Shown here: piece by piece, positions 23,502 through 64,000 of the stretch
How positions within the stretch are numbered: position 1 is the stretch's first letter
Layout of the letters: every line of letters begins with the position of its first letter
Virus record (IMG/VR): IMGVR_UViG_3300033066_001917
Span: 136,246-200,245 of that record
DNA from: a virus
Taxonomy: Duplodnaviria > Caudoviricetes
DNA length: 64,000 nt
Strand: one strand, 5' to 3'
Notes under the pieces: generated by a model
What the model saw: only the letters and a program-made list of their open reading frames with translations
What the model was told of the DNA's origin: nothing
Database searches by the model: none
Program-made: the position numbers and the translations under genes

Positions 23502-24536
23502 CTATTTGTCCTGTCTATCAACCACCGCCCAACCCATTACAGGGCGAACAGATTTATTATCAATGGTTATCCCTAGGTGCCCGGCGTAGAAATTCATAGG
23601 GTGCGACGACCCGCACACCCAATCAAAAGGAACTACCGTGTGCCCGCGTGGTACATTTGATGTACTGAGCTGGGATTTCGGTACCCCAACATAAGGGCTT
23701 TTGAAAAACTGAGTCCCCTTCGACAAATAAGGGAAAAGATTGATAAAAGATCCACTGATCGACCCACCACCTGACATTGACCGCTGTTTGTAGATGGTTT
23801 CCCAAAAATCCAAATCCACATCACCTTTTGAGGCACGAACGAATTGATCCAGGATTGGGGTCAAAGCATCAACCCACCAATCCAAGCCACACACCCGAAA
23901 ACCTTCTACTCTGGTTCGTATGGATTCCCAGTCACTTGTCTCTCCAAGCAAGGTGATTGTGGGGATACCGCAAGCCGTCATCATACCATAGGTGAAATAC
24001 TTCTGCATGGCACCCATAAGTTGTACATGCCCTACAACTTTCTCCACAGGTCCAGTCGTGGTGAAGTTATGGGCTGTGATGTCACCCGTTCCGGGAGTTG
24101 TGTTTCGATCAATCAACCTTTGAAATTCGGATAAAACCGAATCCCATGGGATTCCCGGTGATCCTTTTGAAAAAGGTACTACGACGGTAAGGGGTTTCTT
24201 ACCGTCGTGGGACACAAACTTGTGTCTTAGGCTCTCACTGTTTTCGTTGATGTGGGCCGAAAGCCCGCCACATAGAACACACCACAAGTCATCTGGGGAT
24301 AGGGTTAGTGGGATATGACCGTCGTAAGCAATGTGTACGGCCCCCAGAAATGGGTTGGCTAAAGGCTCCCATATCAAATCTCCGGGTAGGTTGAAAGCGT
24401 AGGCATCAGGTGTGACGTCCTTACACTTCTTTTTTACAAACGAGTCTTGAGGCGTGGGGTGGAACCCAAGGTATGGGTCATCCGATGTAGTACCAGTATT
24501 GATTTCAACGTCTGAAACTGGAAATGTGATTGGCAT
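23502..24536 (-). CDS. DUF4419-family protein
   Basis: AYDGHIPLTLSPDDLW, FTTT, CGIPTITLLGETSDW. Confidence 0.85.
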   Translation of the reverse strand: MPITFPVSDVEINTGTTSDDPYLGFHPTPQDSFVKKKCKDVTPDAYAFNLPGDLIWEPLANPFLGAVHIAYDGHIPLTLSPDDLWCVLCGGLSAHINENSESLRHKFVSHDGKKPLTVVVPFSKGSPGIPWDSVLSEFQRLIDRNTTPGTGDITAHNFTTTGPVEKVVGHVQLMGAMQKYFTYGMMTACGIPTITLLGETSDWESIRTRVEGFRVCGLDWWVDALTPILDQFVRASKGDVDLDFWETIYKQRSMSGGGSISGSFINLFPYLSKGTQFFKSPYVGVPKSQLSTSNVPRGHTVVPFDWVCGSSHPMNFYAGHLGITIDNKSVRPVMGWAVVDRQDK

Positions 24537-38697: not shown

Positions 38698-39723
38698 TCA
38701 CTCTTGAGTTAGAACCGCCCACCCAAGAGCGGGCCGCATTGCCAGTGTGTGAGGGTCTTGAGAAGTACCAACGAACCCACCCGCGAACTCCATCTTGAAT
38801 GTCTGGTCAAAATACTTCCAGACGAAAGGAGCAAGGGTCATGCTCGGAGGAAACGAACTAGAGGTGGGCCCGGACCAAGGATTTGAAGGGTCCTTTAGCG
38901 CGGAAAATTCATTTTTCTTGTAGTATTTCCCATTTCTTGACCTTTCCAAGAGATAAGGGAAAAACGCCGTCACCCACCCGCTGATTCTATCCCCACCACT
39001 TGCTTGGTGGAGTTTATAGAGATTCTTCCAGAACCGAGCATCGGCCGAACCCTCTGACGCCTTGACGAACTGATCCAGGATGGGGAGAAGGTGAGTGGTC
39101 CACCACCCAAGATCATACTCGGCTAGGACTTCAGCCTTAGCACGAACCTTCTGCCAATCTTCTGGGGTACCTAGCAAAGTGATGCTGGGGATTCCGCATT
39201 TGGTATGAACCTCGTATGCAAAGTACCCCTGCATTGCTCCCATGAGAACGATCTCGGATGCTGCCCTCTCTACGAGTCCCGTCGTGGAGAAGTCCGAAAC
39301 AATGGCGTCTCTTTTCTTCCCAATGTAGCCCGAAATTTGTTCACTGAACTCAGAAAAGCACCCCGGCCAGTCGTTGAGGTGGCTACCCTTCACGAAATTG
39401 TCCCGGCGGACAATGAGCGTAGCCTTCCCATCGTGGGACACGAATTGGTTTCGCAGAGCTTCGACATTCTGGTTGACATGGGTTGCAAACCCTTGAGCAA
39501 TCACCGTCCACACATCATCCGGGCTGAGAGTCAGTGGGAAATGGTATGCATAAGCAAGATGCATAGCTTCCACAAACGGATTGGTGTTGGTTCCCACCAG
39601 ATTGGGATGGGTAGAGGAAGCTTCTACCCCCTTTAGCCCCATCACCCCCAAAGATTGTTGAAGGCCCTCAACGGGGAGGGGGTTTTTACACAAACTGACC
39701 TTATCTACGGGGAAGGTTACCAT
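38698..39723 (-). CDS. DUF4419-family protein
   Basis: AYAYHFPLTLSPDDVW, DFSTT, CGIPSITLLGTPEDW. Confidence 0.85.
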   Translation of the reverse strand: MVTFPVDKVSLCKNPLPVEGLQQSLGVMGLKGVEASSTHPNLVGTNTNPFVEAMHLAYAYHFPLTLSPDDVWTVIAQGFATHVNQNVEALRNQFVSHDGKATLIVRRDNFVKGSHLNDWPGCFSEFSEQISGYIGKKRDAIVSDFSTTGLVERAASEIVLMGAMQGYFAYEVHTKCGIPSITLLGTPEDWQKVRAKAEVLAEYDLGWWTTHLLPILDQFVKASEGSADARFWKNLYKLHQASGGDRISGWVTAFFPYLLERSRNGKYYKKNEFSALKDPSNPWSGPTSSSFPPSMTLAPFVWKYFDQTFKMEFAGGFVGTSQDPHTLAMRPALGWAVLTQE

Positions 39724-46367: not shown

Positions 46368-48194
46368 TCAACGGGAGCGAACGCACCTGAATCCGGTACC
46401 CCGTTCCATTGTTGTGAGGGGTCTGGAAATTCTACTGGCAGTTCGCAAATTTGCGGGGACAGTTGTTTCCCAACTACCCCCACGAACTACCCTAGAGGAT
46501 GTCATCCCACTAAGCTGCCCACACAACGGGTTGACGTTTTCCGGAACTGACCAGCAACCAGCATAGTTGTAATTCTGGAAACTATCCGCCATCCACTCGT
46601 AAACTCCGCCCCCCATATCATGAACCCCATCGGGAGTGGTACCGTCAGGAAACCCACCCACCACACAGGCACCCGTACGGGTACTATTTCCTGACCAGCA
46701 CACCAACCCATCTTCCGGGTTCGTTGACCCCCACGGATATGGGTTGGAATTCCCGCCCCTCGCCACCCACTCCCATTCAGCTTCAGTTGGGAGCCTCCCA
46801 CCATCCCAAACACAAAAAGCTTGAGCCGTGGTCCAATTCACACAGTTGATCGGGGACGTTAAGGAAGGACCTCTCCATGTACAACCAACACCGGATCCAG
46901 GTTCAGTGACACTTCCAGCCGTGGGATAGGATCCCGAGGGGTATAGAACGGAAGAAGGGGATGGGTGTCCGGCATTCCAGTAGGATCGAAATCTCTCAAC
47001 AGTTACCTCGTAGGTATCCACATAAAGGGGGGAAATGGTCACTCGACGTTGGATGGGGGTGGAGTTAACACCCAAAACATCACCCATCTCAAACATACCC
47101 CCCCTCACAGTCGTAATACCACAGGAGGATGAGGCCATGCAGGAAATGGGGACCATGCACTCACCTGAAACACATGGGAAACCAGTTCGGCAAGCTCTAC
47201 CGCAAGCACCACAATGGCTAACGTCATCGGTAAGCCTACGGCATACTCCACCACACGAAACAAGATCCCCGGAGCAAGTGCCCCCACCACATGCCCTCAA
47301 CCCTATCGTCCCACAGGGAACGCAAGAGTTACCATCCCTAATATAGCCCGGATTGCACAAGAATTCGCACACCCCAAGGATACAAGAAGTTGACGCATTA
47401 GGTGTGGTGGGGCAAGGTGAACACCCGCCACAGTGAGCTGGATCCGTCAAATGTGGGGTGCAAACCCCTGCGCACACCGTAGTACCCGAAGGGCAGGAAC
47501 ACACACCGGCAGAGCATGTAGATCCCCGGGGGCACACAAATCCACATCTGCCACAGTGAGAGGGATTGGTTGACGTATCAATTTCGCACCCCGTAAGTGA
47601 GTCCGAGTCACAATCCTGAAGGGATCCGCGGCACAATCGAATTGCGCAAGATCCCATTGAGCATTCATTCTCGGCACCCGGAAGGTTGCAAATGACCCCA
47701 CAACCCCCACAATGGGAGGGGTCCGAACGAGTGTCTACACAACGGGATCCACACAGAGTTAATCCGTGGCATGGATCTGCATCGGGAGGAGCACTAACTT
47801 CCCTGTCTACCATAACATCCACACCCATCTCAGGTGTGATATCCACCGAGGCATCGGGGGATGGTTCTGGAGAATGCTCTACTGCCGATTCAAAAGATGG
47901 TTCCTGAATCTCCACTGGTGGTGAGTCCACTACGGGAGACAGCTCATCCGGAGTCTCTTCCAAAGCATCGGGTGTGTCCCACGAATCACCGGGAGAGTCA
48001 TCCATAGACAGATCCGGAGTAGTGTCGGGTAAAGCATCCGGTGGGGGGGTATCCACCACCACTTCTTCCCGTGTAACTATCTCCGAGGGTGAATCCACCA
48101 CCTCTACCAACGATCCATCAAAGTTCACAATGATGGTGTCGGGAGTACAAGCACCCAGGAGCAACAAGCAAGCACTTAAGTTTCGAAGATTCAT
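46368..48194 (-). CDS. lipoprotein with acidic Pro-rich linker, Cys-rich DPxHCGxC repeats and FGE-sulfatase (C-lectin fold) domain
   Basis: LLLGAC lipobox; four HCGxC repeats; EVT, RLPTEAEWE, YPWG, RGGSW, GFRC. Confidence 0.88.
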   Translation of the reverse strand: MNLRNLSACLLLLGACTPDTIIVNFDGSLVEVVDSPSEIVTREEVVVDTPPPDALPDTTPDLSMDDSPGDSWDTPDALEETPDELSPVVDSPPVEIQEPSFESAVEHSPEPSPDASVDITPEMGVDVMVDREVSAPPDADPCHGLTLCGSRCVDTRSDPSHCGGCGVICNLPGAENECSMGSCAIRLCRGSLQDCDSDSLTGCEIDTSTNPSHCGRCGFVCPRGSTCSAGVCSCPSGTTVCAGVCTPHLTDPAHCGGCSPCPTTPNASTSCILGVCEFLCNPGYIRDGNSCVPCGTIGLRACGGGTCSGDLVSCGGVCRRLTDDVSHCGACGRACRTGFPCVSGECMVPISCMASSSCGITTVRGGMFEMGDVLGVNSTPIQRRVTISPLYVDTYEVTVERFRSYWNAGHPSPSSVLYPSGSYPTAGSVTEPGSGVGCTWRGPSLTSPINCVNWTTAQAFCVWDGGRLPTEAEWEWVARGGNSNPYPWGSTNPEDGLVCWSGNSTRTGACVVGGFPDGTTPDGVHDMGGGVYEWMADSFQNYNYAGCWSVPENVNPLCGQLSGMTSSRVVRGGSWETTVPANLRTASRISRPLTTMERGTGFRCVRSR

Positions 48195-56352: not shown

Positions 56353-57804
56353 TCAGAAGTCTTCATTTTCTTCACGGTTTCCCCAACCCAAACCCACAGA
56401 AGCATGAACCTGAACAAGGCCCTTCCGTGGAGTTACGGACACCGCGGTACCCCGGGGGAATCGTTTCATCGCGCCAGGGATTCGTAGGATGGGAATGTTT
56501 CGCACCATTGCCTCTTGTGCAAGGTGACAGGTAGCACCCCCCTCTTCCGTGATCACAGCTTTGGCTTGCATAACTCGATCCAGATAATCAGGGCTCAGAT
56601 TTGGGAGGACAAGGATTTCCTGCCCCACGGTGCCAAAGACATAAGGCTCTTCACCCTCAGAAAGTACGGTGGCAGAGAAACCACCCATCTCATGCTGGAT
56701 TTTACCCATCGTGACAATGAAAGCCCGGTGTTCCGGACCATCGTAGGGATAACCTCCAGCGTAGGAAAACGGTAGGTCATTCCCATGAACATCATAGGCA
56801 CCAAGGTAGGCGTCCGAATGGTCCGGGTTGTCACTACCGAGTTTCAGACCCTGCGGTGAAATGTTTTTCCACGTTGGGGCCATGTCGGATAGAACAGTTC
56901 TCCCCAGAGCGTAGTTCAGAAAAGGAACTCGCGGAACCCTCCCAACAACGTTATCCATCTCGTCGTAAAGGGGAATGTAGTCATCTCCGCAAGCATCTCG
57001 GATCTGCTTTCGATACCCTTTGAGCTGAAAGTTGAACTGGAATTCCTGGAAGACCGGATCCTGTCGCTTTGCCGCCCGAACTTTATCCAGAGTATCCTCC
57101 GGGTATCTCTCCGGAGGGGTTACCTCTTCCGTGGGGGGCTCGATGATATCGAGGGTGCGGTTAACTTGAGCCATACTCCGAAGGGCATCCGCGGGTGTCC
57201 GGAGAGGTTCCCACCAGCTTGGGGGTGGGTCACACGGTTCGAAGATGACCATAGGATTCTTCCCCAAGGTCTCGAAATCACCCTTCACAATCGCCCCCAC
57301 TTCTCCGTCTTCGGTGAAGTAGGAAGCCCGATTGGCCAACATCTCATCCGTCCATGTACCTACGTACTGGTTTCGGAGAGATGAACGCTTACGTGCAAAT
57401 TCAGCATCTCGGTTTCCCGGATTGACCACCCAAGCCCTAGGAACAAACCACCCTTTTTTCCCAGGGAACTTCACCCTGCCTGCGTACACCCAGCGGGTCT
57501 TCTCCAGATACTCTGGGTCGGAGTCTTCCTCCACGTTGAAGCCATCGGTCTCGTTTCCGGAGAACCGATGGCTCCCATCCAGAATCTTCCGGGCAATATC
57601 TTCGATGCCATCTCCGTTGAGTCCCTTCACAATCATCCGAAGGGCCTTCGCGTAGTCCCCCTCAAGGAAAACGGCCCTCACCAAATCGGTGAAACCTTCG
57701 CCAGAAAGGCGAAAATGAAGTGCTGTCATATGACACTCCGCTGTGGAAAGGTCAGGAATTGAGAAGCTCCCGAGCCGACCGTACCTGATCGGCTGCGAAC
57801 TCAA
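56353..57804 (-). CDS. protein with C-terminal PEP-utilising swivel (phosphohistidine) domain
   Basis: AKAVITEEGGATCHLA..IP. Confidence 0.7.
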   Translation of the reverse strand: MSSQPIRYGRLGSFSIPDLSTAECHMTALHFRLSGEGFTDLVRAVFLEGDYAKALRMIVKGLNGDGIEDIARKILDGSHRFSGNETDGFNVEEDSDPEYLEKTRWVYAGRVKFPGKKGWFVPRAWVVNPGNRDAEFARKRSSLRNQYVGTWTDEMLANRASYFTEDGEVGAIVKGDFETLGKNPMVIFEPCDPPPSWWEPLRTPADALRSMAQVNRTLDIIEPPTEEVTPPERYPEDTLDKVRAAKRQDPVFQEFQFNFQLKGYRKQIRDACGDDYIPLYDEMDNVVGRVPRVPFLNYALGRTVLSDMAPTWKNISPQGLKLGSDNPDHSDAYLGAYDVHGNDLPFSYAGGYPYDGPEHRAFIVTMGKIQHEMGGFSATVLSEGEEPYVFGTVGQEILVLPNLSPDYLDRVMQAKAVITEEGGATCHLAQEAMVRNIPILRIPGAMKRFPRGTAVSVTPRKGLVQVHASVGLGWGNREENEDF

Positions 57805-62513: not shown

Positions 62514-63737
62514 TCAGGGAACGAGGCCCTTGGATTTCAAATGTGTGTAGAGATTGACCAAAGACCCGTTCTGTCGAATATAGCCAAACCACGAATAAGG
62601 ATCCATGGGGTAGGGTCCGGTGAGAGACTCTTCCCTCATCCCCCCGACGAGTGCGGCTTTTCTTCGTTCCTGAACCGGCATATTGTTGAAGGATCGATGG
62701 AGCTCATTGACATCAAAGTAGCCCTCATAAATGGGACCAAGTTGAATTGGATGCTGCCGGTACATCGCCTCGACAAACTCCGAAAGTCTCCCCCTGGATT
62801 CGAACTTGGTAACGGCATCAAACCAGATGTACTTGGAAGCACCACTAAGGGCTACTTCTGTGTGCATCCCATACTCACGCAGAAGTGGTAGAATCTCATC
62901 TATGGTTGAGTATATCGACCCAAGAGCTTCGTAGAAAAATTTGTTGAAGATTCTAGGCTCAACGGGCTTGGATCCACGGACAAATTGGACCGAAACCGAC
63001 TTCCTCTCCTGCCGCTCATCCACAGCAGTAGTTTGACCCACGTCCAGAAGAACACGTCGGAGGTAAAGCCGAAGGGCTACGGGATCAACGGCTAGATTGT
63101 GGTAGCTTTCGAGTTTTTTGAGGGTTTCGGAAGGATTCTGAGTGCTCTGATTGATATGGGCACACAGCTTTACAAGGGGCATGTGTGTAGCGGGCTCCCC
63201 CAGGGCTAACAGAATTTCTCTATCCACCGGAGTACCCCTCGTGACCATGAGAGAAATAAGGGCCTGATCGGTCAACGGGTTTCGATTCTCGTCCACCTCT
63301 GTTCCAGGATCATAGGTTCTGCCATTGACCCAAGAAGTGGGTCCCTGATCGAATACAACACTCTCATAGATCCCATTCCCACAACGACAACAGGAACCAC
63401 TTTCAATTTTCTGCCACTTTCCAGCTTTAGGACGAAGGTCTAATGAACGGCATGACCCACAGAATCTAAGGTTGGGAGTCAAAAGAGGGAGAAGATTGAG
63501 GAGGTATTCCACACGAGTTTCAGGAACTTCAATCCCAGCCGACGCCGTCACCTTATCCAAGGTGCGAGTGATAGCCCGTTCTGGAAGATTGTTTATCTCC
63601 TCGTATGTGACTCCGGGTGCCACCAGAAGAGAAACAATCTTTGCTACCGCTTCTGGTTTCTCTTGCAAAAGGAGAGCTTCGGAGATAGCCAGTAAAAACC
63701 CTGTTTTGTGGGCTTCATGGACAGGACGTTCATTCAT
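62514..63737 (-). CDS. Zn-ribbon protein with tandem effector-associated-domain-like helical modules
   Basis: CGSC..CCRC; ALGSIY..WFDAVTKFESRGRLSEFVEAMYRQHP resembles EAD1. Confidence 0.55.
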   Translation of the reverse strand: MNERPVHEAHKTGFLLAISEALLLQEKPEAVAKIVSLLVAPGVTYEEINNLPERAITRTLDKVTASAGIEVPETRVEYLLNLLPLLTPNLRFCGSCRSLDLRPKAGKWQKIESGSCCRCGNGIYESVVFDQGPTSWVNGRTYDPGTEVDENRNPLTDQALISLMVTRGTPVDREILLALGEPATHMPLVKLCAHINQSTQNPSETLKKLESYHNLAVDPVALRLYLRRVLLDVGQTTAVDERQERKSVSVQFVRGSKPVEPRIFNKFFYEALGSIYSTIDEILPLLREYGMHTEVALSGASKYIWFDAVTKFESRGRLSEFVEAMYRQHPIQLGPIYEGYFDVNELHRSFNNMPVQERRKAALVGGMREESLTGPYPMDPYSWFGYIRQNGSLVNLYTHLKSKGLVP

Positions 63738-64000
63738 GGCAGAAGTTACCCACCATTTGAAGAACTGGCATAGGGCTTCCGAAGATCTGCTAGAACCCGA
63801 GCAAGGTCCCCAGCTAAAGAAAATCCAACATTTTCAGGGGTTGGGTTGTTACCTATTTTCAGTTGGTGAGACCGCTCCTCCAGAACTGATTGATGGAAAC
63901 TATCCATAGGCCAACGAAGAGAGGCCACATACTCCTGAAATGTTTGACCCTCCGGACCAACTTTCAGTGCCAGCACTTCTTGCGTAAAATCGTCCATAGG

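Follow-up and report, generated by a model that had tools for sequence, protein, structure and literature searches.

The window analysed here is a 64-kb stretch of viral DNA (Duplodnaviria; Caudoviricetes), namely the final 64 kb of the 200,245-base IMG/VR virus record IMGVR_UViG_3300033066_001917 (G000), whose completeness is estimated at 38%. Close to its end lies a gene (P0001) for a 407-amino-acid (aa) protein that joins an adaptor domain of the EAD1 family to a conserved zinc-ribbon core. The ORF list and the translation show an ATG-start open reading frame (ORF) of 407 codons plus a TAA stop at 62514-63737 on the minus strand, 263 bases from the contig end. The genes in the window are small and mostly on the minus strand, and this one belongs to a long co-directional run of genes of unknown function; the stop codon of the 83-codon gene upstream lies 8 nt before its ATG. 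The start context (63738..63749, minus strand) reads GTAA-N8-ATG, in which GTAA overlaps the TAA stop of the upstream gene, and a well-placed Shine-Dalgarno sequence was not seen there. Three homologues are known at 51-65% identity, and the closest one resides in syntenic metagenomic contigs with the same neighbours. Given these homologues, the synteny and a confident AlphaFold2 (AF2) model with a mean predicted local distance difference test (pLDDT) score of 95.2, the ORF is a real gene. Its phage origin is evident from the IMG/VR virus record, the 22 tRNA genes in the window and the phage-like contexts of its homologues.

Relatives of the protein were collected by an exhaustive HMMER search of 1.84 billion representatives, and the 39 family sequences analysed also served as input for the AF2 model. 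In this model, a five-helix N-domain (residues 8-85) is followed by a Zn ribbon whose extended loop reaches about residue 152; residues 157-232 then form a helical unit, 235-249 a beta hairpin, 261-338 a helical bundle and 343-402 a five-helix unit. A first-pass annotation, made from the sequence alone, had described a Zn ribbon followed by three helical blocks; this layout is correct in the model, and the sequence strings quoted for the blocks are all present. On the minus strand, the N-terminal domain of the core (aa 1-90) occupies 63468..63737 and comprises helices 8-22, 28-38, 45-49, 53-67 and 73-85, with H10 and T44-Y45 nearly invariant. The Zn ribbon and extended beta region (aa 91-152; 63282..63467), delimited by alignments and AF2 strands 101-104, 107-110 and 123-125, contains the cysteines C93-x2-C96 and C116-x2-C119 as well as W108, W136 and D149, which are invariant or nearly so. 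Block 1, the second helical half of the core together with the beta hairpin (aa 153-250; 62988..63281), was delimited from the AF2 model and begins with the invariant P154-x-T156. Block 2 (aa 259-342; 62712..62963) is the Death-like helical bundle assigned to EAD1 by Pfam, hhalign and VIA-align, and block 3 (aa 343-407; 62517..62711) is a C-terminal module with AF2 helices 343-351, 355-364, 369-373, 380-390 and 393-402. Pairwise hhalign comparisons of the five blocks all gave a Prob below 6%, which rules out internal repeats of a single module. When the whole model was compared with PDB and BFVD by Foldseek, nothing fell below an E value of 0.01 and all template-modelling (TM) scores were about 0.1. 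Pfam matches to HEWD (E ≥0.058, over the CxxC region) and to several Zn-ribbon families were weak and judged to be noise, and H7-E8-A9-H10 was rejected as a zincin HExxH motif, as only H10 is conserved family-wide.

EAD1 has been described as a Death-like adaptor that couples suicide or immune effectors to NTPase-centred conflict systems (PMC7159879; PMC8195603). Taken alone, the query matched the Pfam EAD1 model PF19955 over aa 268-330 with an E value of 0.028 and 15.3 bits, which is sub-threshold at the curated cut-off of 24.2 bits. At the aligned position, the relatives P0005, P0006, P0010, P0013 and P0014 scored 35.5, 27.0, 31.9, 70.7 and 111.8 bits with the same model, and EAD1 matches (E ≤0.1; best E 2e-32) were found there in 35 of the 39 family sequences and in all four (4/4) close homologues searched with Pfam. 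Eight cellular EAD1 domains from one Gemmatales genome served as an independent test set; a clade profile built from a 12-sequence alignment of block 2 matched them in hhalign with a Prob of 95.0% (E 3.7e-8, 76 columns), whereas each of the other four blocks stayed below 2% against the same domains. In the AF2 model, this region forms five helices between residues 261 and 338 with pLDDT >90, in keeping with EAD1 as a small all-alpha domain (about 85-90 residues) that lacks enzymatic features. The fold was also examined with VIA-align, a Foldseek-independent structural scan of 48,161 PDB chains, and nearly all of the 50 matches listed for aa 259-342 were Death-fold structures (CARD, DD, DED, PYD and the bacterial death-like domain 8ss1). 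These matches had Z scores of 5.0-6.3, which are modest for a helical bundle although the kind of match is uniform, at a root-mean-square deviation of 2.6-3.2 over 72-93 aligned residues. Together, the Pfam matches across the family, the profile-profile result and the Death-fold structural matches identify aa 259-342 as a genuine EAD1 domain. No cognate EAD1 on a core-system component (vWA-MoxR, GAP1 or STAND) was detected in the 200-kb record, which is about 38% complete, either by our own search or by a Pfam search.

The other two helical blocks had been likened to EAD5 (block 1) and GAAD (block 3), and models of both adaptors (PF19957, 135 positions; PF19976, 62 positions) are contained in the Pfam library used. 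The EAD5 model gave no match at E ≤10 in the query and three close homologues, and none at E ≤0.1 in the 39 members; a profile-profile comparison would need genuine EAD5 sequences, of which 0/301 Planctomycetota genomes supplied any. A mixed alpha+beta character has been predicted for EAD5 (PMC7159879), whereas block 1 consists of about 80 all-helical residues in the AF2 model as against the 135 positions of EAD5, and it never occurs apart from the Zn-ribbon core in the family members. Against EAD1, GAAD and EAD7-like modules, block 1 (aa 153-250) gave hhalign Prob values below 2%, and no other Pfam match was obtained for it. Similarly, the GAAD model matched none of the 39 members and nothing in a search of the phage's own genome, and block 3 reached a Prob of only 1.6% against two genuine Planctomycetota GAAD domains, 1.5% against EAD1 and 1.1% against the EAD7-like module, again with no Pfam match. 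GAAD is expected only in GAP1-N1 GTPase systems, where it couples an effector to GAP1; GAP1 and DO-GTPase genes are missing from the neighbourhood Pfam lists, although no search was aimed at them. Of the 12 nearest family members, 11 carry block 3, which no other member has; it is thus a clade-specific five-helix tail matching no known adaptor. A Death-like nature of this tail was also considered, as a structure search of the ESM Atlas placed two Death-domain-containing clusters in the top rows (TM 0.60-0.63 by query), but this is too weak for a 64-residue stretch, and the search relied on the Atlas's own poor model (pLDDT 0.49). Hence, when each block was checked by profile and structure, the likeness to EAD1, which the first-pass annotation had rated the best of the three, was borne out for block 2, while the assignments of block 1 to EAD5 and of block 3 to GAAD were not: block 1 is an integral, all-helical part of the conserved core, and block 3 resembles no genuine GAAD.

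The part of the protein that is best conserved is not the adaptor. Among four close homologues, identity amounts to 73% in the N-terminal domain, 80% in the Zn ribbon and 62% in block 1, compared with 41% in EAD1 and 43% in block 3, so that the core (aa 1-258) is the most conserved part and the adaptor tail, judged from these alignments, evolves about twice as fast. A family-wide signature runs through the core (H10, T/S44-Y45, CxxC, W108, C116, W136, G145, D149 and P154-x-T156), and the core folded alone reached a pLDDT of 93; no recognisable catalytic motif was found in it. In VIA-align, the best match of aa 1-258 among the 48,161 chains was the five-helix unit 1u84 (Z 5.0), HhH glycosylases reached a Z of about 4, and the N-terminal domain (aa 1-90) gave weak fold matches (Z ≤5.0) to SAM/HhH-like five-helix units. 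The best E value of the core in Foldseek against PDB was 0.26, its profile matched no PDB sequence, and searches of the ESM Atlas gave TM ≤0.29 by shape and ≤0.81 by features, the latter being chance level. The modelled core is therefore without a convincing match to a known fold, which does not prove that its fold is new. In two relatives with EAD1 at both ends (P0026 and P0030), the first CxxC is lost, with Ser in place of Cys and one gap in P0030, while W108, C116, W136, D149 and P154 are kept; because these proteins retain the rest of the signature, zinc binding may be dispensable for the core. The earlier statement that the protein has no effector stands insofar as no known enzyme domain occurs in the query, but a conserved core of about 258 aa lies where an effector or sensor domain would be.

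The 39 sequences, which belong to a family of at least 36 clusters at 50% identity, showed that the adaptors are modular, swappable and sometimes doubled. Besides the core-EAD1-block 3 architecture of the query's clade, there are EAD1-core and core-EAD1 arrangements, EAD1-core-EAD1 proteins (P0014, P0016, P0017, P0026 and P0030), EAD7-like-core-EAD1 proteins (P0013, P0018 and P0020) and core-EAD1-EAD7-like proteins (P0031 and P0035). The EAD7-like module is sub-threshold in Pfam and matches cellular EAD1 with 91% probability in hhalign. Two distant members, which match the query at E 1e-5 to 1e-4, keep the core signature and have an enzyme in place of the adaptor, namely a kinase that matches the models of PD-T4-6, MkoA and PglW (E 1e-7 to 1e-5) in P0033 (L008:10001-11746), and an M48 peptidase (E 2e-25) in P0037. 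Because these relatives fuse the core to a kinase or a peptidase, the core is probably functional in its own right, as opposed to filler in a pure decoy.

Of six genomic contexts read, five were phage-like, with many small unknown ORFs and genes for an SNF2 helicase, dNMP kinase, dCMP deaminase, nucleotidase and DNA methylase; one family context is a 413-kb groundwater contig. The remaining one, the P0033 contig, is ambiguous; genes for an NMN transporter, a NadR-like protein and adenylosuccinate synthetase lie on it as well. Across the family contexts read, no neighbour was conserved beyond the closest relative, and in the five contexts other than that of the query the pre-computed Pfam lists held no second EAD1 gene or NTPase hub within 8-10 kb. 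Apart from this gene, no ORF in the 200-kb phage record carries the core, EAD1, block 3 or the EAD7-like module. A search of 301 Planctomycetota genomes did not reveal the core, and no relative was detected in 185,579 species genomes (peptide-pattern scan with tblastn confirmation), in three IMG/VR scans, or in the GenBank phage collection searched by megablast with 6 kb of DNA and by tblastn with the protein; PHROGs, PADLOC and NCBIfam contained no match for the 407-aa query. In PMC7159879 and PMC8195603, two papers on EAD1, the term 'phage-encoded' does not occur, and the mentions of phages concern other topics. The adaptor domain is known, while its giant-phage setting, the architecture and the accompanying core are undescribed.

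A clue to the host came from an island of 66-68% GC content in this phage of 51% GC, located outside the window (G000:C1:53400-55200, locus L010) and carrying a C5 DNA methylase. This methylase shares 62-76% identity with genes from Phycisphaerales, Isosphaeraceae, Gemmatales and Gemmataceae genomes and about 30% with everything else, so that a planctomycete host is suggested with moderate confidence, on the sequence of one mobile gene. EAD1 was detected in 2 of the 301 genomes of the Planctomycetota sample and in 12 of 151 genomes of the order Gemmatales, with 1-8 matches per genome. One EAD1-bearing Gemmatales genome (G003) was examined; it has a gene for a 209-aa protein that consists solely of two EAD1 domains in tandem (L037:1465-2091, plus strand) and, on another contig, a cluster of two EAD1-trypsin proteins and one protein joining an unknown domain to EAD1 (X-EAD1) (L043:41-1189, L043:1202-2368 and L041:562-1752, all minus strand). 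These proteins, together with the EAD1 matches in the 12 Gemmatales genomes, show that targets of the kind proposed below exist in the candidate host group. The 389-aa X-EAD1 protein was considered as a homologue of the phage core and rejected (Prob 0.8%). Co-folding of aa 259-407 with a Gemmatales EAD1 domain as a stand-in for the host protein, run without controls, gave a score of 0.00 and a mark of 0.32, which speak neither for nor against binding.

As the EAD1 domain is genuine and the gene phage-borne, it is reasonable to link the protein with EAD1-coupled conflict systems of the host. EADs are proposed to pair homotypically and in a lineage-specific manner, which is a computational prediction and not a measured property (PMC7159879), and it is on this basis that we expect the EAD1 tail to dock onto host EAD1 proteins. 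A homotypic partner would have to come from the host, since none is present in the 200 kb of phage sequence or near the homologues, and the faster evolution of the adaptor (41-43% versus 73-80% identity) would fit lineage-specific pairing (PMC7159879). The domain identities, the spread of the family over phage-like contigs, the swapping of modules and the conservation gradient are observations; binding to host EAD1 proteins and an inhibitory outcome are inferred. During infection, the EAD1 domain would dock homotypically onto hubs, EAD1-tagged proteases or other effectors of NTPase-centred suicide and immunity systems, bringing the core, as the putative working or recognition part, to the host EAD1 complex; docking sites would thereby be occupied or sequestered and the recruitment of effectors disturbed, possibly with the aid of an activity of the core. 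That the phage EAD1 docks to the host EAD1 network and interferes with effector recruitment is the explanation we tentatively favour, as plausible rather than probable, and within it the core is more likely the working part and EAD1 its link to that network.

Several points weigh against this explanation. That EAD1 domains bind homotypically is a prediction from published computational work (PMC7159879), the host was deduced from one mobile methylase gene, and EAD1 is rare in the phylum, as the 2/301 genomes show. In addition, a protein that did no more than block docking sites would not require a core of 258 aa, conserved more strongly than the adaptor, and the kinase or M48 peptidase at the adaptor position of distant relatives points, by the 'EAD principle', more toward recruiting effectors than toward blocking them. 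Finally, as the record is about 38% complete, the phage itself could encode an EAD1 partner in sequence absent from it.

The pattern of a constant core with a variable C-terminus (EAD1, EAD7-like module, kinase or M48 peptidase) and conserved signature residues leads to another explanation, in which the protein is a sensor or hub owned by the phage: its core would recognise a protein or nucleic acid of a rival phage or of the host, and EAD1 would recruit EAD1-tagged effectors, encoded by the host or by the unsequenced part of the phage, to this target, in the service of superinfection exclusion or host takeover. Kaur et al. used the same pattern to propose that an EAD recruits in trans what other proteins carry fused, as for EAD10 and GreA-PIN (PMC8195603); moreover, several family members carry two adaptors as hub proteins do, and the core is the best conserved part. 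However, no EAD1-tagged effector occurs in the 200 kb of phage sequence or near the homologues, a phage would seem to run a risk in enlisting suicide proteases of its host, the fusions to a kinase or an M48 peptidase occur in distant members on short or ambiguous contigs, and the core has neither a fold match nor an identified target, so that such a sensor is possible but doubtful. A sharper version, which we hold to be unlikely, is a viral re-addressing adaptor whose core would pick a rival phage or a host defence component and whose EAD1 tail would turn EAD1-tagged suicide proteases or nucleases of the host against it, with sister lineages using a fused kinase or M48 peptidase instead; if true, this would be the first virus that exploits, and does not block, the bacterial Death-like adaptor network, and a new recognition domain would be defined.

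Two further explanations were weighed. EAD1 might serve the phage internally as a general docking module in a regulation, assembly or replication complex, with its partner in the roughly 60% of the genome that was not assembled; the incompleteness of the record, the position of the gene in a run of small co-directional genes of unknown function and the generic use of Death-fold domains for oligomerisation are compatible with this. Nevertheless, we regard it as quite improbable, as published surveys report EAD1 from conflict systems and from no other setting (PMC7159879), the contexts read showed neither a conserved neighbour nor a second EAD1 gene, relatives swap the adaptor for conflict-type enzymes, and an adaptor evolving fast relative to its core fits an arms race better. 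The first-pass annotation, in turn, took the protein for a multivalent decoy composed of EAD5, EAD1 and GAAD only, which would titrate several immune adaptors and contain no working domain. What survives of that proposal is one genuine module, EAD1, in a phage-borne gene; the relatives with two adaptors (EAD1 twice, or EAD1 plus the EAD7-like module) and the lack of a known enzyme domain in the query also speak for it. Blocks 1 and 3, however, are no known adaptors, since no member matches EAD5 or GAAD and block 3 reached a Prob of 1.6% against genuine GAADs; block 1 is never separated from the Zn ribbon and shows higher conservation than EAD1, and filler would not be expected to form the best conserved part of a protein, as the core does. 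A pure three-adaptor decoy, being most improbable, is thus largely ruled out.

Returning to the favoured interference with host EAD1 complexes, a precedent of mechanism exists outside bacteria. Animal-virus Death-fold proteins (vFLIP, CARD-only and PYD-only proteins) block the assembly of host adaptors, and EADs have been proposed as the bacterial counterparts of the Death, CARD and PYD adaptors; we know of no EAD1 interaction that has been measured to date. By analogy, which concerns the mechanism and not the protein family, the phage, too, would carry a copy of a homotypic docking domain of its host, and the structures that aa 262-341 match include the poxvirus vFLIP MC159 (PDB 2bbz; Z 5.0). 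Unlike these viral proteins, which contain little beyond adaptors, the phage protein devotes about 20% of its 407 aa to the adaptor, which is less conserved, and is dominated by the 258-aa core. Compared with cellular EAD1 proteins (PF19955), as described in PMC7159879 and PMC8195603, the phage EAD1 likewise adjoins a larger non-adaptor module in a terminal position, is present once or twice per protein and is exchangeable for other EADs or enzymes. In contrast to them, the gene belongs to a giant phage and not to a cellular operon, no EAD1 hub (vWA-MoxR, GAP1 GTPase or STAND) or effector lies adjacent or elsewhere in the 200-kb record, the fused module is the undescribed Zn-ribbon core, and the EAD1 copy of the query is divergent (15.3 versus 24.2 bits). 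A constant module combined with an EAD or a fused enzyme, with few conserved neighbours, is also seen in the EAD10-TPR-GreA/B-C-PIN proteins (PMC8195603) and in the single-gene kinase defence protein PD-T4-6, but the constant module of the phage is unrelated to theirs in sequence and fold and is found in phage-like contigs, not in bacterial chromosomes.

A genuine, fast-evolving EAD1 in a family seen here only in phage-like contigs suggests indirectly that EAD adaptors matter in infection, and would extend to phages the strategy of animal viruses of capturing Death-fold adaptors. The phage protein could serve as a natural probe, as its binding should reveal the host hubs and effectors against which it evolved. 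In addition, an undescribed and well-conserved Zn-ribbon core has been brought to light, and what this core targets probably has a central part in the conflict.

Other features of the window and of related contigs were also recorded. The 22 tRNA genes are spread over 2749-53930, all on the minus strand among small genes, and include pairs for Pro, Ser, Leu and Arg. Two paralogous DUF4419 proteins are encoded at 23505-24536 and 38701-39723 on the minus strand (Pfam E 9e-69 and 1e-79, respectively). The FGE-sulfatase fold serves as a variable binding module in diversity-generating retroelement (DGR) and conflict systems, and a domain of this kind (formylglycine-generating-enzyme-like lectin) follows Cys-rich Stig1-like repeats in a 608-aa protein at 46371-48194 (minus strand). 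In the closest relatives, an IS200-type Y1 transposase and an S-adenosylmethionine (SAM) methyltransferase are encoded a few genes upstream of the homologue (L001:426-929, L002:2492-2995 and L003:321-824); the region matching them falls beyond the end of the window and of the contig. Finally, a 483-aa protein at 56356-57804 (minus strand), whose sole domain is the mobile domain of phosphoenolpyruvate (PEP)-utilising enzymes near its C-terminus, is conserved in the related contigs L001 and L003, where its relative position is the same.

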